This document shows, in pieces, positions 42,748 through 58,800 of a DNA stretch of 64,000 bases. Source of the DNA: Polyangia bacterium (GTDB lineage Bacteria; Myxococcota_A; Polyangia; JAAYKL01); contig JBNKCR010000129.1 in NCBI GenBank assembly GCA_050287845.1, forward strand, positions 7,364-71,363, written 5' to 3'. Each line of letters opens with the position of its first letter. Position 1 is the stretch's first letter. The notes below the pieces were generated by a model. It did not search any database and was not told where the DNA came from. It was given only the letters and a program-made list of their open reading frames with translations. The position numbers were made by a program, and so were the translations under genes.

Positions 42748-43144
42748 ACTCAATCAATTCAGAATCCGCTCGTCTGGCCCGGTTTGGGGCGTCACAATCA
42801 TCGGTTCACTTTCTGTTGAAAAAATAGCGGCAACGTACAATCAGGTTTCTGCATACTCCATGCAGCAGTTTTCGGATAACTTTCCCGTGAATTGCCACCT
42901 GCATTCAGCTTTCGCACACCCTGTAAAAAGCACAGTGCACGATACAGATAGTCTGGGCTTCAATTGTAAAACACTTTTTTTAATTTGCAGGCCCATCCGG
43001 AGTGTGACTGGCATTTCCTGTGCAATGAACACGAACATACTCTTTGCCGGCGAGGAAACCGGGATGCGTTCCGTTTTTGCAGCGCGTCTCAAACAAACAC
43101 TTTTACATTTCCTTAACTATGGGGAAAGACCAGGAGAAAGAATT

Positions 43145-43807
43145 ATGAAAAGAAGAAGTATTTTTGCATTGGTATTGTCGACGATTCTGTCATTTTCAGC
43201 ATTGGCTTCTGCACAGGAAATTATTCCGTCGTTTCAACTTCGTCTCGACAATGAAATTTATCCCATGACTCAGAGTGACCCACAAAGTGAGCCACAGACA
43301 TGGACCGCCGTGTTTTATCTGAACGAGGAGGAAGCTGAGCGAAATGAAGGGGTTCAGGCCAATATTGACTTCCAGATTGGGGATTTGACAGGGGGCACCA
43401 GCTGGTCCTATTGCTACTATCTGGAGGAGAATGTTTCCGTTCCCGAAACCGGACTGATTACAGAGAAAGGTGATATCAATCAGGTGCCTTTCCGCCTGTC
43501 TGCGGACGACCAGATTCCGGGCCGGTACAAAGCAGTACTTAACGCCAGTAGCGGTGCCATCGATTTCACATATCTGGATGAAGGCACCCTGGGAGACGTG
43601 AACCTTGATGGGGTTGTGGATATCGTAGATTCGCTGCTGATTTCTCAGGACTACGTCCACACCCCCATTACCTCTACCTACGAAACGGATCTTGCGGATG
43701 TTAATTGTGATGGAAGCGTGAATGTCGTTGATTCATTGCTGATTGCCCAGGCGTACGTTCAGGTTCAAAGCGCCATCGACACAATCGCGGAATGTGCCGC
43801 CAACTGA
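43145..43807 (+). CDS. secreted protein with C-terminal dockerin-type tandem repeat
   Basis: Start at MKRRSIFALVLSTILSFSALASA (signal peptide, GGAGAAAG RBS upstream; ORF opens at 42860). C-terminus has two Ca-binding-loop-like repeats, DVNLDGVVDIVDSLLISQDYV and DVNCDGSVNVVDSLLIAQAYV. Confidence 0.7.
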   Translation: MKRRSIFALVLSTILSFSALASAQEIIPSFQLRLDNEIYPMTQSDPQSEPQTWTAVFYLNEEEAERNEGVQANIDFQIGDLTGGTSWSYCYYLEENVSVPETGLITEKGDINQVPFRLSADDQIPGRYKAVLNASSGAIDFTYLDEGTLGDVNLDGVVDIVDSLLISQDYVHTPITSTYETDLADVNCDGSVNVVDSLLIAQAYVQVQSAIDTIAECAAN

Positions 43808-44002
43808 AGCGCTGACCACTTAACTCTCCATTTTGATTCGCCTGACCCCGTTTTCTCAATACAATTGAAGCTGACGTTATCAGATGCAGAAATGCGCAGT
43901 CAGTGCCACCAAACAAAATCATTCCGAGCGTATGTGTTGGGGCACTGATGGGAGCAAAGGTGTGGGCGTTCCCACAGCGCATGACGAGGGAAAAAATGGG
44001 GG

Positions 44003-45199
44003 TCAGAACTGGGAGAAAAACGCCCATGTATCAGCGGGAACCCAGGAAGACGCGCCTCCCGGCGTTGGTGTGTTGCCACCGACGAAGATGCAGGCCCGTA
44101 CGGGGTACCCCTGTTGGCAACCTTCGAAATCAACGCACTCCGGTGTATTACCGCTACTATCAGTGGGGTCGGGCATGGCCTCGGCAAATGCATCCCGGCC
44201 CATGCCCGGGTCCGGCGCTATGCACCCGTTTGTCTTCGCAAAATCCTGCAGCGGTGGTACGCCGTACCCCGGATATTTGCAGACACTGTCGTTGATGCCA
44301 TGGGTCATATAATAGGCAACGGGACTGCTGTGCTGCTCGCAGCCACTCATTGGGCCCCCGGAATGAGCCGCAACCGCGCGAATCACATCCCCCATGGCGC
44401 AGGCCATGGCATAGGACATGGAACCGCCCATACTGAAACCCTCGCAGAAAATGCGCGATTTATCGATGCAAAGTTCGTCCTCCATTTTTGAGATCAGCTG
44501 ACGGGAAAATTCGACATCATCCCCATTGCGGTTCCACCAGGCATTGTTCAGCCCCTGGGGGGCGACAAAAATCGTACTCCCCTCGGCCAGATTCCATAGA
44601 CCATAATAGGAGCCCTGACTGACCCAATCCGACGTTTCGCCCATCGAATGATACGCCATCATTAAACGATATGGTTTATTGTTGTCGTAATCATCCGGAA
44701 TCTTGAGGTTGTATGAGCGGCTTGAGCCCGAGACATCTATGGATAGTCCGTTTCCACTCGAAAGCGTCGATGTTTTCCCGCAGCCGGCGCTTTTGTCGGG
44801 ATCACCATCTGTATCGGTATCCGTGTCGGTAACCATTTCCGTTTCCGTTTCCGTTTCCGTTTCCGTTTCCGTTTCCGTTTCCGTGTCCGTGTCGGTATCG
44901 GTATCGGTATCGGTGTCTGAACCCGTGTCGGAATCCGAATCAGAGTCTGAATCCGTGTCGGAGTCTGAATCCGTGTCGGAGTCGGAATCCGTGTCGGAGT
45001 CGGTATCCGAATCTGTATCTGTATCTGTATCGGAATTGGTATCGGTAGCTGTATCGGTATCCGAATTTGAATCGGCATCACTGCTGTTGATGTCACTAGT
45101 CTTATCTTGATTGACTAGTTCTGTATCGACGCACGTTGCCAGGGCAAATGAGATAATCATCAGAAAAAACAGATGTTTCCAGTCAGATATGCAATCCAT
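44003..45199 (-). CDS. secreted esterase (PHB-depolymerase / feruloyl-esterase-like alpha/beta hydrolase) with Asp-Thr/Asp-Ser/Glu-Thr repeat linker
   Basis: Start at MDCISDWKHLFFLMIISFALATC (signal peptide; ORF opens at 45298); about 100-aa acidic repeat tract; catalytic domain with GFSMGGSMSYAMACAMGD nucleophile elbow and several Cys. Confidence 0.75.
   Translation of the reverse strand: MDCISDWKHLFFLMIISFALATCVDTELVNQDKTSDINSSDADSNSDTDTATDTNSDTDTDTDSDTDSDTDSDSDTDSDSDTDSDSDSDSDTGSDTDTDTDTDTDTETETETETETETETEMVTDTDTDTDGDPDKSAGCGKTSTLSSGNGLSIDVSGSSRSYNLKIPDDYDNNKPYRLMMAYHSMGETSDWVSQGSYYGLWNLAEGSTIFVAPQGLNNAWWNRNGDDVEFSRQLISKMEDELCIDKSRIFCEGFSMGGSMSYAMACAMGDVIRAVAAHSGGPMSGCEQHSSPVAYYMTHGINDSVCKYPGYGVPPLQDFAKTNGCIAPDPGMGRDAFAEAMPDPTDSSGNTPECVDFEGCQQGYPVRACIFVGGNTPTPGGASSWVPADTWAFFSQF
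44797..45094 (-). repeat. coding hexanucleotide microsatellite encoding (D-T/D-S/E-T)n
   Basis: Runs of gtatcggtatcggtgtc and gtttccgtttccgtttcc units on the plus strand inside the esterase gene. Confidence 0.8.
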
Positions 45200-45378
45200 A
45201 AAAAGTCTCCCTTCTTCGGTAAACCCTCTAACCGCAACAGAACTTCGCTGCGGTGATGTATTCTCCCGCTGTCTCGGTAGGTTGCCGTGCCAATACAAAG
45301 TGTTGAGGAGAAGGAGAAATGGGTTGGGATATCTGAACTATCGGCGGATGTCAAGATAGTTGTCGCATGAGTGTTGCA

Positions 45379-46224
45379 TCATGCGGCCTCCTTAATTGAG
45401 ACTTTTGCCGGATTGAGGGACACCGTTTCTACCGGGATCCAGTTTCGTGTTTTTCCAGTCCAACGGTTTGGTTCTTTTTGTTTTGCACTCTCATAAACCA
45501 AATGTCGTTGACGCAAAATTTCTTTATCATCACCATTATGGCGCGCCTCGGGGGTAACGAAGCGGATGCCGCTGTGTAAGTGTTTTGTATTGTACCAAAT
45601 CACAAATTTCTCCATCCAGCGCCTTGCTGAATCGATGGATTCAAACGGCTTGTGAGGGTATTCTGGTCTGTACTTTAATGTTCTGAAGATTGACTCGGAA
45701 TAGGGGTTATTATCGCTTACTCCCGGGCGACTGAAAGATGCCATCACGCCAGGCTGGTCAAGTGTCGCAAGCATTGTGGCGCCTTTCATCGGGCCGCCGT
45801 TGTCTGAATGCAAAGAAAGCTGATTTGCATCTACACCATTGGCGTCAATAATCTGGACAATCATGGCAGATGAAATTTCCATACACTCACGGTCGTGAAT
45901 TTCCCATCCAATAATCTTTCTGCTCCAAACGGCCAGCACAAGATACGGATAATAAAACGTTCCTCTGACCGCTGCAGGCAAGTACGAAATATCCCAACTC
46001 CACACCTGATTGGGGCCCGTTGCCAAAAGTTCATCGGGTCGATTGTGCGTTGCGGGTTTTGAGGATTCTCGATGTTGCTGTTGTCCCTCCTCACGAAGAA
46101 TCCGATACATGGGAGACTCGGATGCCACGTACACGCCGCTATCAGCCAACCTGGGTACAATTTGATAGTTCCCTTGAAGGGTTGACCGATACGCCCAAAG
46201 AAGCGCTGACAATGGGCATCGCAT
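45379..46224 (-). mobile_element. IS3-family transposase remnant (OrfB integrase-core part only; OrfA and the 5-prime part missing)
   Basis: Integrase-core (rve) signature PNQVWSWDISYLP...YYPYLVLAVWSRKIIGWEI and the DDE region; no HTH OrfA frame upstream; transposase-like similarity starts only about 30 codons into the ORF. Confidence 0.7.
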
Positions 46225-46439
46225 CTATTCTTGACGCAAAAGAAATCGCGATGCTGGCCATTGGAAAACACAAATCGAAGATTCTTCAGCGGATAGTTGA
46301 GTCACCCCCTTCAATAATGGTACCGGCATCTTTTCTCTTTTCGCACCCTCAGACAGTTATTTTCGCAGACAGTGCAGCCGGCCAACTTCTCGATCGACAA
46401 CGCGCTGACGTGACCTGGTTTCCATCCCCTCTGAAGTAA
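46130..46439 (+). pseudogene. glucosamine-6-phosphate deaminase (NagB/6-phosphogluconolactonase family) 3-prime fragment
   Basis: C-terminal about 80-100 aa (ALTMGIASILDAKEIAMLAIGKHKSKILQRIVE...SHPQTVIFADSAAGQL) parallels E. coli NagB residues about 185-250; no upstream two-thirds of the gene; abuts the IS3 remnant. Confidence 0.6.
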
Positions 46440-46575
46440 CACGTGAACAATTCTGACCAGTGTCGTATTGATGCCGCATCTAAAACGTTTCAGCGGAAGT
46501 GGTCAAGTAAGAGTCGAATATCCTTTTCGCCCTGATTGTCTGTGAAAGGCACTATAACCGGCTCTGAGAGTTCTG

Positions 46576-47448
46576 CTACATGTGCCTGGCGAACAGTTTG
46601 CTCATGGCATCCCGGGAGATGGGGGGCTGTTTTACGAGTGGTGTGGTCTCGATTTGGGGAATCCGGTCCTGGAAAGCGTTGCCGCTGTCATCGTGGTAAA
46701 AGAGCCCCACCGGAATCTCGTCGCCCCAGGCCATGGCTTTTTCAATGGCCCGGATGCGATCGTTGGTTGGATAATCCGGGTCATCGTTGATATTCACGAT
46801 GCGGTCTTTGTACCACTTGAAGGTGTTCACTTTGTTCATGCTCACACAGGGTTGGAGAATTTCGATGTAACTGAGGCCTCTGTGCTTCACGCCCATCTGA
46901 ATCAATTCGGACAGATGTTTGGTGTCGCCTGAAAAACTGCGCGCCACAAAACGACATCCAAGGGTCAGCGCCAGCGCCGGTCCGCGCAGGGGATACGATA
47001 TCACGCCACGGGGCTGAAGCCTGGTCTGCAGTCCCATGTCACTGGTGGGGGACGCCTGCCCCTGGGTCAATCCATAAATCTGATTGTTGTGAACCATCAG
47101 CGTCACATCAATGTCCCTGCGGAGGGTATGCAGAAAATGTCCGCCACCTTCACCATACATATCCCCATCCCCGGAGTTCAGGAGAATGGTCATATCTTCA
47201 TTGGCCAGCTTGGCGCCGGTGGCGGCAGGCAGTGCACGTCCATGAAGACCACAGTATGCGTTGGCCGTGATGTACTGGGGCAGCTTGGCTGCCTGACCGA
47301 TTCCAGCCATCATCATCACTTCGTGGGGTTCTTTGCCCAGCGCTTCCAGTGCGTCCTTTACGGCGGCAAGAATGCCAAAATCGCCGCAACCGGGGCACCA
47401 TGCGGTTTCTTTTACTGTACAGATATTGAACGATTTGCACTCACTCAT
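46576..47448 (-). CDS. 2-oxoacid:ferredoxin oxidoreductase, beta (TPP-binding) subunit
   Basis: 290 aa; N-terminal Cys cluster (CPGCGDFG); TPP-binding GDG motif (NSGDGDMYGEGGGH); overlaps the alpha gene stop/start. Confidence 0.85.
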   Translation of the reverse strand: MSECKSFNICTVKETAWCPGCGDFGILAAVKDALEALGKEPHEVMMMAGIGQAAKLPQYITANAYCGLHGRALPAATGAKLANEDMTILLNSGDGDMYGEGGGHFLHTLRRDIDVTLMVHNNQIYGLTQGQASPTSDMGLQTRLQPRGVISYPLRGPALALTLGCRFVARSFSGDTKHLSELIQMGVKHRGLSYIEILQPCVSMNKVNTFKWYKDRIVNINDDPDYPTNDRIRAIEKAMAWGDEIPVGLFYHDDSGNAFQDRIPQIETTPLVKQPPISRDAMSKLFARHM

Positions 47449-49148
47449 TTTACCACCTCCAGAACCGCTTCGGTCAGGTCTTCGACAATATAGGGCCGAC
47501 CATCGTATTTCGTCATGATTTCGGGCTTGATGCCGGTGCTCTGAGCGATGATGGCTGCCAGTTGACCCGTACTGTTGCCTTCCACCGAGATGATGCGTTT
47601 GCTTTTTTCAACCGCGCTGCTGAACTGTCTGGTTGGAAATGGCCAGATATCCGTGAGATGCACGTGATTGAGATGCACCCCCCGTTCTTTCAGAATGGCC
47701 ACGGACTCTGACAGGGTATCTCCAGTGGAACCCCAGCTGACCACTGCCACTTCAGCGTCCCTTGTGCCACTGGTCTGCACATTGTACGTGGCACTCAGTC
47801 GCGCGGTTTTCCGTGCGCGCTTTTCAACCATAGCCTTTCTGATTTTCGGATCATCCGTAATGTGGCCGGTCTCCACATGTTCGTGGCTGTCGGTGAGCAT
47901 CAGATGTTTGCTCTGCCCCGGGTACGCTCTGGGAGAAATGCCTGAATCCGTAATGGCATATCGTTTGTACTCAGTCATCTGAGACAGTGTTCTGGTTGAG
48001 ATCATCGACGTTTCTGTGGGAATCCGATCCAGATTGTACTGATCAACCGTGAAGAACGAATCCGCAATATGCTGGTCAGAAAGCACAATCACCGGAATCT
48101 GGTATCGGTCGGCGATATTGAATGCCCTTGCGGTGATGTAAAAAATATCTTCCGCGTTGGTGGCGGCCAGAACCGCCCGGGGGAAATCCCCATGGCCGGT
48201 GAACGTGGAGAAGAGCAGATCGGCTTGCTCCTGACGGGTGGGAAGCCCGGTTCCAGGACCGCCGCGCTGGCAGTTGACAATGACAAGAGGCACCTCTGAA
48301 ATACCGCAGAGGGAAATCGTTTCACTCATAAGCGCCATACCGCCACCGGATGTGGATGTCATGGCGCGAACGCCCGCCATGGACGCGCCCACTGCCTGAT
48401 TCACCGCGGCGATTTCGTCTTCTGCCTGTTCTGTGACGATGCCTGCAGTCACCTCGGCATTGGCCAGGTAGGTGATAATACCGGTGGAAGGCGACATGGG
48501 ATAGCAACTGATGAATTTCATGTTCGCCGAAAGCGCTCCCAGCGCAGCGGCTTCGTTTCCGTTGAGAAACAATCTGGATGGCGCGCCGTCAATGGTTGGA
48601 AGCGAACCCAGTCTGCCCGCATGGGCTTTTCCCCGGGTGTTGCCTTCCGCTGCCGCACCGATGTTACCGGCCGAGATGGTCTCGTCCCTGAAACGCTCCC
48701 TGAAAAGGGTATTGAGAAGTTCAATATCCAGACCAAGGACACCCAAAACGAATCCCACCGCTGCGGAGTTGGAGTAAATGGGCTTCTTTCCAGTCTCCAT
48801 CGCAATCTGTCTGAGTGGGACATCGATAATCCGGGGATCGGCGATGTTCGCCTTCAGTGTAGCATTGTCAACGATCGCAATGCCATCTTTGTGGAGCGCT
48901 TCAATGTCGCTCTCCATTTTTTCCCTGTCGAGGGTGACCAGTAAATCCACCTGCTTTTTCATCGCCCACACGGGGACATCGCTGATGCGCAGTTGAAAAA
49001 AGTTATGTCCGGCGCGAATTCGCGACTCTGAATCCTGCACGCCAAACACGTGGTAACCGGCCCGCACGCAGGCCTTTCCCAGCAGTTTTCCGGTACTCAG
49101 AAGTCCCTGTCCGGCTGCTCCAGCCAATCTGATATTAATGTCGGTCAT
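47445..49148 (-). CDS. 2-oxoacid:ferredoxin oxidoreductase, fused gamma-alpha subunit
   Basis: 567 aa; N-terminal gamma-type domain (LAGAAGQGLLSTGKLL) fused to an alpha-type domain (CYPMSPSTGI, GGPGTGLPT). Confidence 0.85.
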   Translation of the reverse strand: MTDINIRLAGAAGQGLLSTGKLLGKACVRAGYHVFGVQDSESRIRAGHNFFQLRISDVPVWAMKKQVDLLVTLDREKMESDIEALHKDGIAIVDNATLKANIADPRIIDVPLRQIAMETGKKPIYSNSAAVGFVLGVLGLDIELLNTLFRERFRDETISAGNIGAAAEGNTRGKAHAGRLGSLPTIDGAPSRLFLNGNEAAALGALSANMKFISCYPMSPSTGIITYLANAEVTAGIVTEQAEDEIAAVNQAVGASMAGVRAMTSTSGGGMALMSETISLCGISEVPLVIVNCQRGGPGTGLPTRQEQADLLFSTFTGHGDFPRAVLAATNAEDIFYITARAFNIADRYQIPVIVLSDQHIADSFFTVDQYNLDRIPTETSMISTRTLSQMTEYKRYAITDSGISPRAYPGQSKHLMLTDSHEHVETGHITDDPKIRKAMVEKRARKTARLSATYNVQTSGTRDAEVAVVSWGSTGDTLSESVAILKERGVHLNHVHLTDIWPFPTRQFSSAVEKSKRIISVEGNSTGQLAAIIAQSTGIKPEIMTKYDGRPYIVEDLTEAVLEVVK

Positions 49149-49337
49149 GAGGTCTCGGGCTCCATTTTCTGTTGATATACATTGAGAATAGTATCTCGCT
49201 TTCTATATTCGCAATCACCAGAGTTAAACACATCTCAGGCTGAGTGCAACCTCACCGTCGTAACATCCGGCCTTCATCGGACAGATGCTTCGGGAATTAC
49301 ATCAGACATGAAAGTAAACATGATGCTGCGCGGCCAA

Positions 49338-49853
49338 TCAGGCGCCATCGAGACCATGACGCTCTGATGCGTCAAACCAGGCTTCGGGGTCCTGCAGATA
49401 CGCAAGGGAATCTTCGATGGAAAGCTGGTGATCATGTTCGATTTTTTTCAGAAAACCGAAGAATTCCTGTTCTCTGGGGTTCTTGCATTTTTTCACCAGA
49501 TCCGCATAGAAGTCTGCGGCGTCTTTTTCAAACTGAGCTGCCGCTTTCAATGCTTCAATATCACTGTCGTCGTGGGCTTTTGTTTCTTCAGCCTTGTAGT
49601 CGAGTTTTTCGAGCTCTTCTTTTACATTGCTGTCCTGCATTTCCAGGTTCACATCTTCTGGCCATGCGCCATCCGCCAGGAGCGTACTGTGGAGTTTGTT
49701 AATCCACCGTTTGTGGTCTTCCTCTTCCTCCGCCAGCGTTTCAAGCAGACGTTTCACCACGGGATTGGTCGAACGGGCCGCCTCTTTCAGATAGTAATCT
49801 TTTTCGCGTTGCTCATTGTCCATTGCAAATTTTATTGAAGAAATTTTATCCAT
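49338..49853 (-). CDS. ferritin-like / rubrerythrin-like diiron domain protein
   Basis: 171 aa; paired E...E-x-x-H helices (TLAEEEEDHKRW, KKIEHDHQL); no rubredoxin module. Confidence 0.6.
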   Translation of the reverse strand: MDKISSIKFAMDNEQREKDYYLKEAARSTNPVVKRLLETLAEEEEDHKRWINKLHSTLLADGAWPEDVNLEMQDSNVKEELEKLDYKAEETKAHDDSDIEALKAAAQFEKDAADFYADLVKKCKNPREQEFFGFLKKIEHDHQLSIEDSLAYLQDPEAWFDASERHGLDGA

Positions 49854-49896
49854 AACTTTGCTCCTTTACAAAAATCGATGTCCACAAAAGTGAAAA

Positions 49897-50385
49897 CTAG
49901 TTTTCCACCAGCACAACCTCATCGTATTCGACTTCAAATCGCAGTTTGTGCTTTGCTTCTTCCTGGGCCAGCGCAAGAAACAGCGCTTTAATCTCGGGGG
50001 TATCCACTCGACTCGCCAAATCCATGTACAGGCGGAATGCCTGTTTCTCCTGTTGCATGGCAAACAGCAGAATATCCTGGTACGACGGGGATTCACCCAG
50101 CTTCACAGGAACTGTATAATCCGAGAGCTTCATATCGGATGTCGCCGAAGCGCTCTCCAGTACATCTTCGCCTTCCAGAACGTCCTCAAGCTTTTTCCGG
50201 TGTTCCATTTCTTCTTCAGCGTACTCCAGAAAGATTTTTCTGATTTCATTGTTCTTCGCCCTGGCGGCCAGATCGGTATAGAGTACCGCTGAGCGCTGTT
50301 CAAGAGATATGGCATACTCCAGGATGTCCTTTGTGCTCAGGTGTCCGGTCATCGTTATATTCTCACCATTACGTAAGACAGGCAC
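49897..50385 (-). CDS. ferritin-like / rubrerythrin-like diiron domain protein
   Basis: 162 aa; YAEEEMEHRKKL and LAQEEAKHKLRF motifs; start may be the internal MTGHLSTKDI (50352). Confidence 0.6.
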   Translation of the reverse strand: MPVLRNGENITMTGHLSTKDILEYAISLEQRSAVLYTDLAARAKNNEIRKIFLEYAEEEMEHRKKLEDVLEGEDVLESASATSDMKLSDYTVPVKLGESPSYQDILLFAMQQEKQAFRLYMDLASRVDTPEIKALFLALAQEEAKHKLRFEVEYDEVVLVEN

Positions 50386-50441
50386 GGGTGTTGCGCAAAA
50401 CGCTTACGGATTCGGGCAACACTTTCGCGCCTGCGGATTCA

Positions 50442-50984
50442 TCAGAAATATCGTTTCAACAGTCCGGCAAATGCCTGACCGTGCCTTGCTTCGTCTTTGC
50501 ACATTTCATGTACGGTATCGTGAATGGCATCGTAATTCAGCTGTTTGGCTTTGGTTGCGATGTCCTTTTTCCCCTGGCAGGCGCCGTGCTCCGCAGCGAC
50601 GCGCATTTCCAGGTTTTTCTTTGTGTCTGCCACAAGCACTTCACCCAGAAGCTCAGCAAACTTGGCCGCATGTTCCGCTTCTTCGAATGCAATGCGTTTG
50701 TATGCTTCGGCAACTTCCGGATACCCTTCGCGTTCCGCCTGTCGGCTCATGGCGAGGTACATGCCCACCTCCGTGCATTCGCCCATGAAATTCTGACGCA
50801 ATCCTTCCAGTATTTCGGCGTCAACATCTTTGGCCACGCCAATGCGATGCTCATCCGCCCAGGTCATTCCGGTACCGGACTGCTCCTGAAATTTTTCTTT
50901 GGGGGCGCCGCATTGGGGGCATTTGTCCGGCGCACTGTCGCCTTCGTATACGTAACCACAAATGGTGCAAATGTATTTTTTCAT
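50442..50984 (-). CDS. reverse rubrerythrin (N-terminal rubredoxin-like, C-terminal ferritin-like)
   Basis: Start at [15 protein letters not shown] (ORF opens at 51005); CxxC...CxxC at the N-terminus (CTICGY...CPQCGAP), then a diiron four-helix region ([20 protein letters not shown]). Confidence 0.8.
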
Positions 50985-51065
50985 TTGATACTCCTCTTTT
51001 TTCAATCGGTTAATTGTTGTTGATGTGATTGCATCATTAATGTCTCCGCGCGTATTGTCAATCGC

Positions 51066-51311
51066 TCATGTGTGCCACTTGCCTGCAATCCGATGCTTCT
51101 CACACTCTTTTTCTGTGAGTTTGATCAGTCTGTAGGCGGTATCGCGCAAAATACTGTAAATCACGCCACAGGAATCATCATCCCTGTCCCGGTCGCCCTC
51201 ATCCGCCAATGCCAGCATTTCCTGGCTGAGTCGCATGGTTCTGAGCAGATTGTCGTTGTACGGTTTGTACGGTTTTGTCATCTCGCCATCCATTCTGCGA
51301 TGTATCACCAT
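51066..51311 (-). CDS. hypothetical small protein
   Basis: 81-aa ORF directly upstream, same strand, of the reverse rubrerythrin gene; no motif recognised. Confidence 0.35.
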   Translation of the reverse strand: MVIHRRMDGEMTKPYKPYNDNLLRTMRLSQEMLALADEGDRDRDDDSCGVIYSILRDTAYRLIKLTEKECEKHRIAGKWHT

Positions 51312-51635
51312 TTTTCCGCCGGCATCGCGATGGCAGGCTATTTAGCGAATGCCATGCCAGTTTAAAAAAACGTTTAATATCAACCTGTTGATTGAATTGT
51401 TGTTCAAAAATGTCTCATTGGCAGTGTCTCGGCGCGTTGCTTCCGGGGCTGTGAGACAAACGGCCGACGAGACAGATACTGCGGCGACAAATCGGTGTTG
51501 GTGCGGTCAAATCCTGCCTGAAAGAGATTGTGTCGAGGTTCGCAGTAGCGGCGGGAACTTCCATGATTACAGTGGTGAAACAGCAGATCACAATCATATA
51601 TAACCGTGCAGTTTGCACAGTGATACAGGAGAACA

Positions 51636-51902
51636 ATGATGAGCAGCCCCAAAACCTATGAATACAGGGCCAATCTTTCCCGGGAACAGATTCTGGAATA
51701 TCTCGAGAATGTTGCAGCCGGTATCCGGTCCGGTAAAGTGATATTACAAAACGGACAGGGGGAGCTGGCGCTGGAAACAACCCCCACCACCAGGCTCGAA
51801 GTGTCTGTGAAGCAGAGCGCTAAATCCACCGGTCTGAAACTCAAGTTCAAGTGGCGAAATGATACCGATTCCCGGGATGAGTCCAGTACCGCGGAGAACT
51901 GA
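51636..51902 (+). CDS. hypothetical small protein (amphi-Trp-domain-like)
   Basis: 88-aa ORF with GGAGAA RBS; pattern ELALETTPTTRLEVSVKQSAKSTGLKLKFKW resembles the amphi-Trp small-protein family. Confidence 0.45.
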   Translation: MMSSPKTYEYRANLSREQILEYLENVAAGIRSGKVILQNGQGELALETTPTTRLEVSVKQSAKSTGLKLKFKWRNDTDSRDESSTAEN

Positions 51903-52200
51903 GCGCCGCCGGGATGAGTTCTCTCCCCGGAATGCCGGGATGCGATTCCCATGGTTTTACTGATGGTGAATATTTACCGGATTTTTGAAAACGGATGTTT
52001 TATCACCGAAATATGCCGAAAAAGTGGAAACCCGGTCTTCAGCACTGTCCGGAAATGCCGATTTTCAGGGTGTCTCTCAATTGCGCATGTATCGCTTATG
52101 CGAGCAAACCAGTTGGCAGAAACATTGAACAGAACTGAAGCATTGAACAGAATTGAAACATTGAAATCATCACCATACGAACCCGGGATAATGAGAGATC

Positions 52201-53019
52201 ATGACCTTTTTGGAACCGTATTCGAGCCCGCGTGTACTTGCCACGGCCGGTCTCCCCAATGAGCAGGATCGCTTTTCAGACGCAGGGATAATTTCGAAAG
52301 CGCCCGTGGAGGTGACCCACGAACTGGCTTCGCTGCTGGCGCACCTGCATGAGCGCGTATCTCCCAACTATCGTCCGCGCGAAATCATTCTGGAGCTGTT
52401 GGCCGAGCTCGAAAGAAAATCGGCATTCACCGCCCAGCATTCGATGAAGGTGGCCACCGTTGCCCGCATTCTCGCCAAATCACTGCATCTCGATATTGTG
52501 GCCCTGGAGCGAATCAGCCTTGCTGCGTTACTCCACGACGTGGGCAAACTGGTGATTCCCATCCGCATCCTGAACAAAAAGAAAGCGTTGTCGGATGCAG
52601 AACGCCGTTGCATCCAGACCCATGCCGTATTCACCGATGTCATCCTCTCCGCATTTCCCATCTTCGATGCCATTCGGGGGATTGCCACACTGCATCACGA
52701 ACACCTCAATGGCACCGGGTATCCGTTCGGGTATGGCGGCAGCGACCTTTCCATGGAAACGCGGATTATCACCGTGTCCGACATCTTTGTTGCATTGACC
52801 GAAGATAGACCCTATCGCCCCGGCGTGACCCAATCCGCCGCACTCCACAAGCTGCAGATGCTGGCCAGTGAGGATATTGTGGACCGCAGGCTGGTGGAAA
52901 GTGCCAGGCAACATCTGCTTCCCCACAACCACTCTTCCGCCATCTGGTTTCCATCCCGGACCGCCATCTCCATCGCCCTCGATTTCGAGTCCCTGCAGAC
53001 TGCCGGAATGATTTCGTAA
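52201..53019 (+). CDS. HD-GYP domain phosphohydrolase (putative c-di-GMP phosphodiesterase)
   Basis: 272 aa; HD motif LLHDVGKL and GYP motif HLNGTGYPFG. Confidence 0.8.
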   Translation: MTFLEPYSSPRVLATAGLPNEQDRFSDAGIISKAPVEVTHELASLLAHLHERVSPNYRPREIILELLAELERKSAFTAQHSMKVATVARILAKSLHLDIVALERISLAALLHDVGKLVIPIRILNKKKALSDAERRCIQTHAVFTDVILSAFPIFDAIRGIATLHHEHLNGTGYPFGYGGSDLSMETRIITVSDIFVALTEDRPYRPGVTQSAALHKLQMLASEDIVDRRLVESARQHLLPHNHSSAIWFPSRTAISIALDFESLQTAGMIS

Positions 53020-53114
53020 TCACCTTTCTTTCAGGGACATAAGAAATATGCGACGTGCGGGTCCTGTGCTATAACAATCTCTGGTTTACAAAGCGTGACA
53101 ACAAGGGAGGTCCT

Positions 53115-53999
53115 ATGAATCGATTGGGTATCAGTCTCTGTATCTGCATCTTTGCCATCGGTTGCGGTGGCGGTAATCCAGCCATATCGGATTCGGCAGT
53201 TTCACCTGCCCGGGAAAATTCTGATGGAAACGTTTCCACGGCACCGGGAGGCGTTGATGAGTTCGGCACCAGAACCGGTGATGCATCCGGGGGCGGGGTC
53301 AGTGGTTCGAAGTTGACCCCCACGGAAACCGAAGCCGTGCTGAAACTGATTGTGCAGTCCGAAGGCGTTGGGCCAATGGCGAAGGTGGTGGTGAGAGCGG
53401 TGACTTTGGACGGAAAGAAATTTTACACGCCGGAAACGGATTCCATGGGATACACGGAAATTCTGGTGCCCAGGGGAGCGCAGTTGACGCTCACGTATCT
53501 GTCTCTGTTCACCGATGATATTCAGAAGCAGACCGTCATTCCCGACAAACCCCATGTGACCATGAAACTGACACTCACCTGGATTCCCCCCAAACCCCGG
53601 CCCATTGAAACGCCGGATCCCGGGGTGCTGATTGCGCAATCCCCATCTGCTGAACCATCTCTCATCCTGGATGGCGTGGTGTTCGATACCGGCAAATCCA
53701 CGCTTCGTCCGGAATCCTACGAGCACATTGAATCGGTGCTGGAATACCTCACATATAAACCCAGTGCGATTATTGAGCTGTCCGGTCACACGGACAACGT
53801 GGGCAATCCGAAGAAGAATCTGAATCTTTCCGAAGATCGGGCAAACGCGGTGCGGGACTATCTGATTTCAAAGGGGATAGATGGCAGTCGCATCATTGCA
53901 GTGGGATATGGCGAGCAACGGCCGATTGCGTCCAACAATACCGAAGAAGGACGCCAATTGAATCGACGTACCGAAGCCAAAGATATCGCAAAACTATAG
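53115..53999 (+). CDS. OmpA-family lipoprotein (peptidoglycan-binding OmpA/MotB C-terminal domain)
   Basis: Start at MNRLGISLCICIFAIGC with AGGGAGG RBS (ORF opens at 53055); lipobox AIGC; C-terminal domain with NLSEDRANAVRDYL...GYGEQRPI. Confidence 0.8.
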   Translation: MNRLGISLCICIFAIGCGGGNPAISDSAVSPARENSDGNVSTAPGGVDEFGTRTGDASGGGVSGSKLTPTETEAVLKLIVQSEGVGPMAKVVVRAVTLDGKKFYTPETDSMGYTEILVPRGAQLTLTYLSLFTDDIQKQTVIPDKPHVTMKLTLTWIPPKPRPIETPDPGVLIAQSPSAEPSLILDGVVFDTGKSTLRPESYEHIESVLEYLTYKPSAIIELSGHTDNVGNPKKNLNLSEDRANAVRDYLISKGIDGSRIIAVGYGEQRPIASNNTEEGRQLNRRTEAKDIAKL

Positions 54000-54222
54000 C
54001 GCCACGGGCAGGACGGTGCGACGCTTCCCCGGTGCGCCGGGATGTGAAGCCCACCGCATCGCCGGTCTGTCGCCTAAACAACGAGACGGCCTTTCGTAAT
54101 ATTATTAATTTAGCAATTATTTGTTTTCGGTAAGTACAGAAAATACGTGTAGTTTTTGGTTCGCGCAGTGGTATAAACCTTTGGAACGGATAAAAAATGA
54201 TTTTCGCAACCCCGGACCAGAT

Positions 54223-55851
54223 ATGACATTGATCCGTTTTTTATTGAGTGCGTCCCTGAAAATGACGCTGCTCACCATATTCGTGGCACTGCTCAGCGGC
54301 GCATTCAGCGGCGCCGTTGTGGCTGTGGTGCATCGGACGATTGAATCAGACCGTGAACTGACGCTGCTGCTGGGTATCGCATTTGTTCTGGCGGCGACCG
54401 GTAAACTGATTACCGGATATTTCAGTGAAGTCATGCTCACCAGAAGAGCGCAGACCGCCGTCGCCGCGTTGCGTCTGGACCTGGTTCGCAAACTGCAGCG
54501 GGTGCCGTTCAAGCGCTTTGAGGAGTTGGGACAGGCGAGGATTCTCACCACCTTCACCGACGATGTGGCGTCAGTAAGCCAGGGGCTGTACCAGCTGCCG
54601 GCATTCACCATCAACGTTGCGGTGTCTCTGGGCGGGGCGCTGTACCTGGTATATCTGTCGTGGCAGACACTGTTTCTCCTCGGCGGGCTGTCGCTCATTG
54701 GCGCCCTGGTGTATCGCTTCATGCTGAGACGTGCATGGCGGGTGTATGGCCTGGCGCGCGATGAGCGGGATCGACTGAACAATCACCTCGTTACATTGAC
54801 CCGGGGTATGAAGGAACTCAAACTGCACCGACCGCGACGTCATGCCTATACCGAAGTTGAGCTCCAACACAGCACCGACAGGCTCATGGAACTGGATGTC
54901 AAATCCCACTCGCGGTATATTCTGGCCCACAGCACCACCCATTTTTTTCTGATGGTCCTCATCGGACTGATTGTATTTGTCTCGCCCCAGCTCCTGCATA
55001 TTTCCGAAACCACGGTGACCGGATATGTGTTGATTGCACTTTTTCTGATGGGACCCCTGAGCGGGATTGCCGGCACCATGCCGGTATTCAGCCGGGCCGG
55101 GGTGGCTGTGGATCGCATCCGCAAACTGGGGATTTCATTCGATTCCGGCAAGCAGGAAAAAGCGGTGGTCACTGCAGAGGACGCCGCGTCGTTTATGGAA
55201 ATATCGCTGAATGAGGCCACATGTGTCTATGAAAGGGAAGGGGACGCCCCCTTTACCCTTGGACCGGTGAACCTGAAATTCGGTCCGGGCGAATTGATTT
55301 TTATTACCGGCGGAAATGGAAGTGGCAAGTCTACCCTCGCGAAGTTACTCACCGGTCTGTATGCACCCGGGGACGGTCAGATTCTGTGGAATGGCACACC
55401 GGTGACTGACGAAAATCGGGATGATTACCGGCAGCTGTATACCACGGTGTTTTCAGATTTCTTTTTATTTGAATCGCTGCTGGGACTGGATTCCCCCAAT
55501 CTGGACACCCGGGCGCAGAGCCATTTGAAAAATCTGGGACTCGATAAAAAAGTGCGCATTGAACATGGCGCATTGTCAACGGTGAATCTTTCAACCGGAC
55601 AACGAAAGCGGCTGGCATTGCTGACCGCATATCTTGAAAATCGACCAATCTATGTGTTTGACGAGTGGGCAGCGGACCAGGACCCGTCGTTCAGAAAAGT
55701 GTTTTATGAAGAACTGATTCACGATTTGAAAGCAGAGGGCAAAACAATCCTCGTGATTACGCATGATGACAGATATTTTCACCTGGCGGACCGACATTTT
55801 GAAATGAGGGACGGGCAGATGGCAGAACGGGACAGACAAAAAAAGGAATAG
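54223..55851 (+). CDS. cyclic-peptide/siderophore-type ABC exporter (fused permease-ATPase)
   Basis: Start at MTLIRFLL (ORF opens at 54121); N-terminal six-helix permease; C-terminal ATPase with Walker A GGNGSGKST, signature LSTGQRKRLALL, Walker B IYVFDEW. Confidence 0.8.
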   Translation: MTLIRFLLSASLKMTLLTIFVALLSGAFSGAVVAVVHRTIESDRELTLLLGIAFVLAATGKLITGYFSEVMLTRRAQTAVAALRLDLVRKLQRVPFKRFEELGQARILTTFTDDVASVSQGLYQLPAFTINVAVSLGGALYLVYLSWQTLFLLGGLSLIGALVYRFMLRRAWRVYGLARDERDRLNNHLVTLTRGMKELKLHRPRRHAYTEVELQHSTDRLMELDVKSHSRYILAHSTTHFFLMVLIGLIVFVSPQLLHISETTVTGYVLIALFLMGPLSGIAGTMPVFSRAGVAVDRIRKLGISFDSGKQEKAVVTAEDAASFMEISLNEATCVYEREGDAPFTLGPVNLKFGPGELIFITGGNGSGKSTLAKLLTGLYAPGDGQILWNGTPVTDENRDDYRQLYTTVFSDFFLFESLLGLDSPNLDTRAQSHLKNLGLDKKVRIEHGALSTVNLSTGQRKRLALLTAYLENRPIYVFDEWAADQDPSFRKVFYEELIHDLKAEGKTILVITHDDRYFHLADRHFEMRDGQMAERDRQKKE

Positions 55852-55859
55852 TATTTTTT

Positions 55860-58800
55860 ATGTTGGCATATGGAATAGATACCATCAACGAAGCTTTAAA
55901 ACGAAATGCAGAGCAGTATGGCGACGACATTGCGTTCCGATTCATCCAGGGCGGTACAGATGAAAAGAGTATCACCTACGCCGAACTGTATTCGAGAGCG
56001 CTGCAGATAGCTTCGCAGTTTCGATTGGCAGAAATCCCGTTACAGTCGAAGGTATTGATTCTGTATCCGTCCTCCCTTGAATACATCTGCACGCTGTTCG
56101 GTTGTTTTCTGGCGGGGACAACCGCGATACCGGCGTATCCACCGGTGTTCAACCGGTCACTCTCCGCCCTGCGGAATATCGTTCTCGATTCCGGAGCAAC
56201 CATCGCCTGTGTGGAATCGGCGATTCGGGAGCAGTTGCAACCGTTGCTTCACACGGAGTCCTGGCTCGAAAATCTGAACTGGATGACCCCGGAAGAAGAT
56301 GTTGACGACGCCGTCGATACGAGCGCCCTGCCAGATGTGGCGCCGGAAGACCTGGCCGTTCTGCAATACACGTCCGGTTCCACCAGTGCCCCCAAAGGCG
56401 TGATGTTGTCCCATCGAAATCTGGTGGCCAATGCCCATATGCTCATGGCGCGTGTGCAGGCGACCGCCCGGGTAGACAGAATGGTCGCCTGGCTGCCCCC
56501 GTTTCACGATATGGGTCTCATCGGGAGTATTCTGGCGCCGGTATGCGCCCGGGTGGAATCCACCCTGATGCCCCCCAGTTCGTTTATCAAAAAGCCCCTT
56601 CGCTGGCTGGAAGCGATTTCCAGATATCGGGGAACCATCACTGCGGCGCCGGATTTCGCGTACGAGATGTGTGTGCATCGCACCCCTCCGAAGCAGCGGG
56701 AACTGGTGGATCTCTCCAGCCTGCGCGTGGCCCTGAACGGGGCGGAGAAGGTTCGCGAAGACACGCTGAACCTGTTCTGTGATGCGTTTAAATCGCAGGG
56801 ATTCTCAATGTCGGCATTTGCGCCGTCCTACGGGTTGGCGGAAGCGACACTGGGGGTTGCCATCAAACGGAATGGCAATACGCCGCTTGCCCGCCGATTT
56901 GATACGGAGAAACTGAAGGAAGGGTTGGCGGTCCCGGTCGGCGGCGATGACGGCACATCCCTGGTCACCTGCGGCAAGCCCCTCGATGGCGTGGATGTGA
57001 AAATTGTTTCCATTGAAACGCGGCAAGTCGTTACACCCGGGATGATTGGCGAAATTTGGGTGCGCAGCGCCAGCGTGTCCAGGGGATACTGGCAGAAAAT
57101 CGAGTTGAGTCGTGAGATTTTTGAAGGAACGCTGCCTTCGGATGGCAGACCGGATGAGAAGTATCTGGCCACCGGTGATTTGGGATTCCTGTATGACAAT
57201 GAATTGTATGTGACCGGCCGCCACAAGGATCTGATCATTGTGCTGGGGGTCAATCATTATCCGGAAGACATCGAGAAAACAGTTGAATCCGCCCATCCCG
57301 CCATCCGGCAACATACTGTCATTGCGTTTGCGCTGCCGATAAACGGGACCGAGCGCGTGGTGGTGACCACTGAGATTGCCCGGGGCAATGAATTCGCCCT
57401 CGACGACATCATTGGTGCCATCCGCAATGCCATCAGCACCCGACATCAGTTGCCGGTGTACGATATTGTGCTGCTTCCCCAGGGAGGACAGGTGGCCAGG
57501 ACCACCAGCGGGAAGCCACGGCGCAGCGCGTCCCGGCAGAAGTACGAAGCCAACGGGTTTACGCCGCTGGGAAGCAGTCAGATGCAGCAGGGGACAGAAT
57601 CGGGTTCTCCGGCGGAAGAAATTGCAGTGGTCCAGCGGGTCATGGCGGAAGTGCTTTCGGTGGACCGGGTTTCAGCAGACGACGACTTCTTTGCCCTGGG
57701 CGGACATTCGCTCATCGCCACCCAGCTGGCCTCCCGGTTGGCATCTCTCTGGGAAAGAGAGGTGCCCGTGCGGGTGATATTCGAGCGGCCGACGGCTGCC
57801 CGGCTGGCGGGGGTGCGGCACTCGCTGCCGGTGACCGGAAAACGGAATCAGATACAGAAGGTGGACCGAAGCGGTCCGCTGGTGCTTTCCCACTCTCAGG
57901 AGCGAATGTGGCTGTTGCACCAGCTGGAACCGGATGGCACGGCATACAATGTTTCCGGTGCGGTAGTGGTGGATGGTCCGTTCAACGTGGTCCATTGCCA
58001 GACGGCGATGCAGCGCCTGGTTGACCGCCATGAAACCCTGCGAACCACTTTCCCTTCCGAAGGCGGTACGGTTTCTCCCATGATTCACTCCAATGTGAAA
58101 ATCAACGTTGTTTGTGAAGACCTGTCGAGCGCCGATGACCCGCTGGAACAGGCCGCACGCAAGGGGTCGCTGCTGGCCCACAGGCCGTTTGATCTGGCGA
58201 GGGATTTGCTGATACGGGTTGCCATATTCAAAGTTGCCGACGTTCGGCATGCCATTGTCATTTCGATGCATCATGTCATCTCCGATGCATGGTCTCTGGG
58301 CGTGGTGCTCAAAGAAATCATGGAAGACTACCTGGCATTGAACCGGGGCGAAGTTCCGACTTCGGTGGTGCCGGACATTCAGTATGTGGATTACGCGGCC
58401 TGGTTCCGGCCCGTCGTGGAAAGTGAACGGTTCAATGATGAACTGTCGTATTGGCGGAACCGACTGCAGGGCACACCGAATCTTGAACTGCCCACCGATC
58501 GGTCCCCGGGTTCGAATGTGAGTTCAGCAGGGGAAATGGAACGACTGCAAATTTCGGAAACCCTGCGCAATGAAATTGAGGATTTGGCCCATCAACATGG
58601 CGCCACGCCATTCATGGTGATGCTGCTGGCCTTTGAAACCCTGTTGTACCGGTACAGCCGGCAAACGGATTTTGCCATCGGGGTGCCCATTGCCAACCGC
58701 AATCATCATCAGTCCGAACATCTGGTTGGCACCCTGGTCAATACCCTGGCTTTCCGCGCGAATCTGAATCCAAAGGAGGCATTCAGTGCGCAACTGGAAC

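Follow-up and report, generated by a model that had tools for sequence, protein, structure and literature searches.

The window, i.e. the whole stretch of 64,000 nucleotides that was analyzed, contains two truncated genes that meet head to head: 818 bp of an IS3-family insertion sequence (IS) and the last 90 codons of a nagB gene (glucosamine-6-phosphate deaminase family). The locus is an ordinary IS-associated deletion scar, composed of an IS3-family fragment and a nagB stub that both represent pseudogene fragments; an esterase-like gene and the genes of a 2-oxoacid:ferredoxin oxidoreductase operon are found in its vicinity. The features of the scar and of its surroundings are the following (coordinates of the window, strand, description):

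42860..43807, + strand: dockerin-like gene with two dockerin-like repeats at the C-terminus, DVNLDGVVDIVDSLLISQ and DVNCDGSVNVVDSLLIAQ
44003..45298, − strand: esterase-like / alpha/beta-hydrolase-like gene (weak Pfam hits only)
45349..46166, − strand: IS3-family IS remnant, right-hand 818 bp (nt 918-1735 of the 1735-bp intact element; gap-free blastn)
45349..45371, − strand: right terminal inverted repeat (IRR), intact; matches the inverted left repeat (IRL) of contig L001 (9-32) at 23/24
45379..46166, − strand: orfB pseudogene that covers residues 91-352 of a 352-aa intact OrfB, as judged from P0001 and P0123 (domain matches: Pfam rve, rve_3; NCBIfam IS3)
45379..46224, − strand: chimeric 281-aa ORF; codons 1-19 antisense to the nagB remnant, codon 20 straddling the junction, the rest OrfB
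46020..46439, + strand: chimeric 139-aa ORF; first 49 codons antisense to the IS remnant
46166..46167, no strand: deletion junction; IS homology ends at 46166 (blastn), NagB homology starts from codon S-S-L-E-G-L at 46167
46167..46439, + strand: 3′ remnant of nagB, 90 codons plus stop (TIGR00502, PRK02122, Pfam, PDB 2ri0)
49338..51023, strand not given: three clustered rubrerythrin-family genes (precomputed gene list of contig L002)
55860..61775, + strand: non-ribosomal peptide synthetase-like gene, 1971 aa, with AMP-binding, PP-binding, condensation and thioesterase domains (precomputed gene list of contig L002)

The esterase-like product, apparently a secreted protein or a lipoprotein, possesses a long linker of Asp-Thr/Asp-Ser repeats, the length of which differs between the window and the corresponding contig of a related strain (L083, see below; 78 indel columns). 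The non-ribosomal peptide synthetase-like gene and the rubrerythrin cluster are located downstream of the oxidoreductase operon. No Rfam match indicative of a structured RNA was obtained for 43500..47000, and the scar region revealed no convincing promoter or terminator.

With the oxidoreductase beta subunit as synteny anchor among GTDB genomes, Zodletone 'Deltaproteobacteria' MAGs were identified as the closest genomes (82-86% amino acid identity). In L081, the best of them, a dockerin-like gene, the counterpart of window 42860..43807, comes directly after the oxidoreductase operon, and this arrangement argues that window 43808..46575, which comprises both remnants and the esterase gene, is lineage-specific accessory DNA. 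The dockerin-like orthologue that adjoins the operon in L081 is 50% identical to the protein of the window. Neither nagB nor the esterase gene was present at this position in the loci of the nearest relatives (L081, L003, L004), and the closest relatives do not reconstruct the ancestral locus. A pre-deletion allele, be it a full-length IS at the site or an intact nagB by the oxidoreductase operon, was not found.

The IS3-family remnant and its intact relatives

A protein search with the transposase ORF of the window yielded relatives of 59-90% identity, most of them 330-352 aa in length, starting approximately 90 residues earlier and equipped with HTH domains. The contig of the best protein match (L001, 1744 bp) holds a complete element: inverted repeats of 23 bp, TGTCAGGATAGTTGTCGCATGAG and TGTCAAGATAGTTGTCGCATGAG, at positions 9 and 1743 delimit an IS of 1735 bp that contains an orfA encoding 174 aa with HTH_Tnp_1, nine consecutive A preceding a G, and an orfB that overlaps in the −1 frame. 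Contig L084 harbors an intact copy of the same layout (562-2296) that is even closer to the remnant; both contigs include both IS ends, and their repeats match at 23/24. The OrfA of L084 matches positions 1-85 of the NCBIfam IS3 transposase model (NF033516), and the intact OrfB proteins P0123 (98% identical to the remnant) and P0001 score 196.8 and 197.8 bits, respectively, above the family threshold of 160 bits.

The part of this element that is preserved in the window was delimited by gap-free blastn alignments, in which window 46166-45348 corresponds to L001 926-1744 (91% identity) and window 46166-45339 to L084 1479-2306 (98.4% identity); the remnant thus represents the right 47% of the intact IS. 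The missing 917 bp comprise the IRL, orfA, the A9 slippery site and OrfB residues 1-90 with the HTH part. This left part was not found anywhere in the 64-kb window by blastn, nor did a search of the window for orfA, the A-run frameshift site and the IS left half reveal any of them. Of the two terminal repeats, the IRR alone is present (read from its outer end as TGTCAAGATAGTTGTCGCATGAG, with the outermost TG at 45349-45350), and the IRL is missing from the window; the orfB pseudogene is devoid of the HTH_23/HTH_32 part. The 281-aa ORF matches the NCBIfam IS3 model at positions 150-367/369 with 150 bits (E 1e-43), a value below the cut-off because the protein is truncated; the IS481 model was the runner-up with 59.7-115.6 bits versus a cut-off of 224. 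The codons of the DDE triad have been retained (45991-45993 for the first D, 45802-45804 for the second D and 45694-45696 for E), and the catalytic motif of the 281-aa ORF (D78, D141, E177, K184; spacings 63, 36 and 7) conforms to the D(~57-63)D(35-36)E pattern with K/R about seven residues past E (motif according to PMC5771124). Because one IS end and the DNA-binding part are gone, the remnant is predicted to be incapable of transposition.

The organization into orfA and orfB, the frameshift and the DDE motif are features of the IS3 family (PMC5771124). The intact copies L001 and L084 resemble IS911, IS150 and ISSau2 in their overlapping ORFs, AnG-type slippery site, OrfA HTH, TG...CA repeats, DDE residues and K seven positions past E; the window remnant is alike in its D-63-D-36-E spacing but differs from the family by the absence of IRL, orfA, frameshift site and OrfB HTH. 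With 1735 bp, the intact element is longer than the members of the IS150 subgroup (1200-1400 bp; PMC5771124). Since the nearest annotated plasmid-borne transposase relatives, which are labelled IS3 family, are at most 56% identical, the element would, as judged from its sequence, be an unnamed member of the IS3 family. A metagenome scan with OrfB for further close copies gave only relatives of ≤64% identity.

The flanks of the L084 copy (…CTCTG / IS / TCCGCC…) show no clear target duplication of the short (3-5 bp) kind that IS3-family elements generate, but a short metagenome contig of this kind could join flanks of different copies; in the window, the left end of the IS is deleted. TCCGCCG is located just outside the IRR in both the window (45341..45348) and L084 (2297-2304), and CCCYCTG just outside the IRL in both L001 (1-8) and L084 (554-561); these similar bases may reflect a target-site preference or an element that reaches a few bases past its TG...CA repeats. 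The six terminal bases of the IRR (45349..45354; − strand, outward direction) form TTGACA, a perfect −35 hexamer that faces the esterase gene. The circle-junction promoter of IS3-family elements makes use of such an outward −35 arrangement at the IS end. A hybrid outward promoter from the IRR tip into the esterase gene was considered and rejected, as a consensus scan revealed no complete promoter with the present flank.

The nagB remnant and the chimeric reading frames

The forward-strand fragment terminates with a stop codon at 46437-46439, and its matches are confined to the C-terminal end of the models: positions 178-248/259 of TIGR00502 (54 bits versus a cut-off of 236.9), 200-279 of PRK02122, 167-217/225 of Pfam Glucosamine_iso (PF01182; 25.5 bits versus a cut-off of 27) and residues 162-231/234 of PDB 2ri0 (E 8e-12). 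In solved NagB structures, these 90 residues correspond to the helices and strands at the C-terminus. An alignment with seven full-length homologues shows that, unlike NagB proteins (PF01182, TIGR00502), the stub lacks the N-terminal ~175 residues with their conserved DEY and NGHIAFNEPGS motifs; its scores are far below the family cut-offs. Instead of a full-length NagB domain (~230-270 aa above the curated thresholds), solely the C-terminal 90 residues are encoded; the active-site region, which occupies the N-terminal two-thirds, is missing, and the DNA upstream of 46167 is IS-derived. With the active-site region gone, the stub is expected to be unable to deaminate glucosamine-6-phosphate, and this locus gives no grounds for assigning NagB activity to the organism.

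A tblastn match to E. coli NagB (an approximate query sequence) extended beyond the junction to 46107; it was dismissed as chance similarity, this DNA being 98% identical to the IS. The IS-derived codons F-D at the junction align with non-conserved positions of NagB homologues and are not informative on microhomology.

A close intact nagB orthologue was not detected in an exhaustive HMMER search of 1.84 billion representative proteins (best matches 40-53% identical). An exact 29-mer from the remnant gave no match among metagenome contigs, and a word-indexed protein search with the remnant retrieved its own cluster only. The stub derives from a lineage of NagB proteins that has been sampled poorly.

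Two open reading frames run across the junction. The 281-aa ORF on the reverse strand, for which NCBI calls a shorter version of 243 aa (P0125), is a by-product of the fusion and no native gene. For the 139-aa ORF on the forward strand, NCBI calls a version of 105 aa that starts at 46122 (P0121), and the JGI entry P0127 (139 aa) is named '6-phosphogluconolactonase/glucosamine-6-phosphate isomerase/deaminase'. Public databases thus carry the chimeric ORFs P0121, P0125 and P0127 as proteins; these entries are spurious, and both ORFs deserve a pseudogene flag.

The deletion junction and the decay of the remnants

At 46166/46167, the interior of the IS directly abuts the interior of nagB with zero filler bases. 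The sequence-only reading, which had placed the breakpoint near 46130, was thus approximately 36 bp off. It had recognized correctly that the reverse-strand ORF contains the IS3 integrase core (rve, rve_3, NCBIfam IS3 positions 150-367/369) without the OrfA/HTH part, and that the forward strand encodes the C-terminal ~80-100 residues of a NagB-family enzyme (90 residues, with matches at the C-terminal end of the models only). Neither an intact OrfA with a frameshift site upstream of the transposase nor a full-length NagB frame across the locus was detected when looked for. The OrfA/OrfB architecture that this reading took for granted is realized in the intact element (L001, L084), and the IS3 inverted repeat that it suggested to search near 45300..45380 is the intact IRR at 45349..45371. 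Intact copies, which it likewise proposed to look for, were obtained for the IS in relatives (L001, L084), while the 64-kb window contains no other fragment of the IS or of nagB.

The junction was compared with two further assemblies. The Logan contig L002 (SRR36185847) spans the junction and agrees with window 45531..56439 at 100% identity; the JGI contig L083 (sample 3300077100) is 96.4% identical to window 44791..48273, and its junction is the same base for base. This bears on the question whether contigs of a metagenome-assembled genome were mis-joined at a repeat: an IS is a repeat, assemblies often break or mis-join at IS copies, and the Logan contig indeed ends within the IS remnant, at 45531. 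However, the identical junction is found in three assemblies (NCBI contig, Logan SRR36185847, JGI 3300077100), and the JGI sequence originates from a strain that is ~3.6% divergent, with common derived substitutions in both scar copies. The same junction in a strain of this divergence effectively excludes an assembly chimera, which we regard as extremely improbable. The scar junction is real, and the deletion is older than the split of the window and L083 strains.

Both remnants are dead and drift as pseudogenes. Between the two strains, they differ by 13 nonsynonymous and 1 synonymous change (in the nagB remnant, 3/3 differences are nonsynonymous), as opposed to 8 nonsynonymous and 23 synonymous changes in two neighboring oxidoreductase genes; the counts are small (Fisher p = 4e-5, or 0.006 when a cluster of 8 changes is treated as a single one). 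Relaxed constraint on the remnants is thereby shown. With L084 and L001 as intact references for polarization, the scar lineage was found to have acquired T>P, L>P, L>P and D>N as well as one synonymous change before the strain split; of these five derived changes, which both scar copies have in common, four are nonsynonymous, three of them leading to proline. The window copy later gained D>A, and the IS remnant of L083 has acquired extra indels of +1, +3 and −5 bp.

These data also bear on a possible retention of the truncated OrfB for a function, e.g. as trans-acting inhibitor of intact IS copies. The triad D78/D141/E177 is intact in an ATG-initiated ORF of 281 aa, and OrfB alone inhibits transposition in IS3-family elements (PMC5771124). 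Nevertheless, the remnant of the sister strain contains frameshifting indels, the substitutions are almost all nonsynonymous, with three changes to proline as well as D>N and D>A at conserved positions, and the start codon together with the first 19 codons is accidental antisense nagB. The probability of such a retained function is considered close to nil.

Adjoining the junction, L083 shows eight substitutions within the 32 bp of window 46100..46131, mostly changes to G on the + strand and none of them common to any intact IS copy; this observation could be due to a local cluster of mutations or to an error in sequencing or assembly.

Origin of the scar

The arrangement is best explained by a single IS insertion upstream of the esterase-like gene, followed by a single illegitimate deletion from the interior of the IS into the interior of nagB, with both pieces now being pseudogenes (probability of roughly 85%). 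According to this scheme, a 1735-bp IS3-family element with a − strand transposase would have been inserted upstream of the esterase-like gene; the intact ancestor would have possessed orfA, an A9 run for −1 frameshifting, orfB and 23-bp repeats ending TG...CA, and a nagB gene would have been oriented convergently to the 2-oxoacid:ferredoxin oxidoreductase operon. A single illegitimate deletion, which did not involve transposase catalysis, would then have joined IS nt 918 to about codon 176 of nagB and would have removed the left end of the IS, orfA, the frameshift site, the first 90 orfB codons, the intervening DNA and the catalytic two-thirds of nagB. We infer the order of these events, the occurrence of one deletion and not several, and the mode of recombination. 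In classical transposase-mediated adjacent deletions, the deletion starts exactly at the IS end and leaves the IS whole; in contrast, the breakpoint of the window lies inside the IS and not at its end, which makes illegitimate recombination by the host more likely than a transposase-mediated adjacent deletion.

The sequence-only reading had considered both genes as 5′-truncated in a rearrangement scar from which the 5′ halves were deleted, and loss of the intervening DNA is indeed the best explanation. It had assumed, however, that the IS was inserted into nagB and that both genes lost their 5′ halves in a subsequent deletion. Deletions that follow the insertion of an IS into a gene are commonly seen, and the direct head-to-head contact of the two truncated genes would agree with such a history. 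With the IRR kept, though, the 5′ part of nagB would be expected at 45348 and below, where the upstream region of the esterase-like gene is located; a NagB probe detected no NagB N-terminal similarity outside the IRR or elsewhere in the 64-kb window. Since the intact IRR adjoins the esterase upstream region and not the 5′ part of nagB, an insertion into nagB is disfavored, and its rescue would require an extra deletion on the IRR side, i.e. three events versus two. We consider this course of events unlikely.

Alternatively, the missing halves might have been moved and not lost, if a reciprocal rearrangement or translocation had placed the left part of the IS and the 5′ part of nagB elsewhere in the genome. 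The inspection covered 64 kb of a larger genome, and the source contig measures 160 kb, which leaves room for this explanation; on the other hand, neither the left half of the IS nor a NagB N-terminal segment is present in the window, and for geometric reasons a simple inversion between the breakpoints would probably not join the right part of the IS to the 3′ part of nagB. A relocation of the missing halves is therefore regarded as very unlikely.

An insertion upstream of the esterase-like gene with one subsequent deletion is in line with the IS-associated deletions and partial IS copies of genome erosion, in which the IS is likewise cut internally, fused to unrelated chromosomal DNA and accompanied by fragments of adjacent genes. 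The scar provides a base-resolved example of one deletion that would have destroyed both an IS and a neighboring sugar-catabolism gene in an uncultured Zodletone-type 'Deltaproteobacteria' lineage; its importance is small and consists mainly in annotation housekeeping.

A further parallel to IS-associated deletions is that the same IS has been truncated a second time elsewhere. At a second locus, L084 contains the full-length IS, whereas contig L165 from another metagenome, with a left flank 98.8% identical to that of L084, contains an IS cut at nt 1358, to which other DNA is joined. The latter represents an independent internal truncation of the same IS and shows that such truncation recurs. 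Internal truncation at two independent loci (the window; L165 versus L084) raises the idea of a specific recurrent process of the host or the element that cuts inside the IS and deletes outward (e.g. excision-enhancer-like activity or abortive copy-out), as opposed to random illegitimate recombination. Alternatively, the DDE-bearing OrfB stub might be kept as inhibitor of active copies; to this group of explanations we assign a very low probability. The second locus of the IS (L084 1-2443, L165 4415-6400) is situated between RND/MFP efflux genes and a DUF2147/OEP pair.
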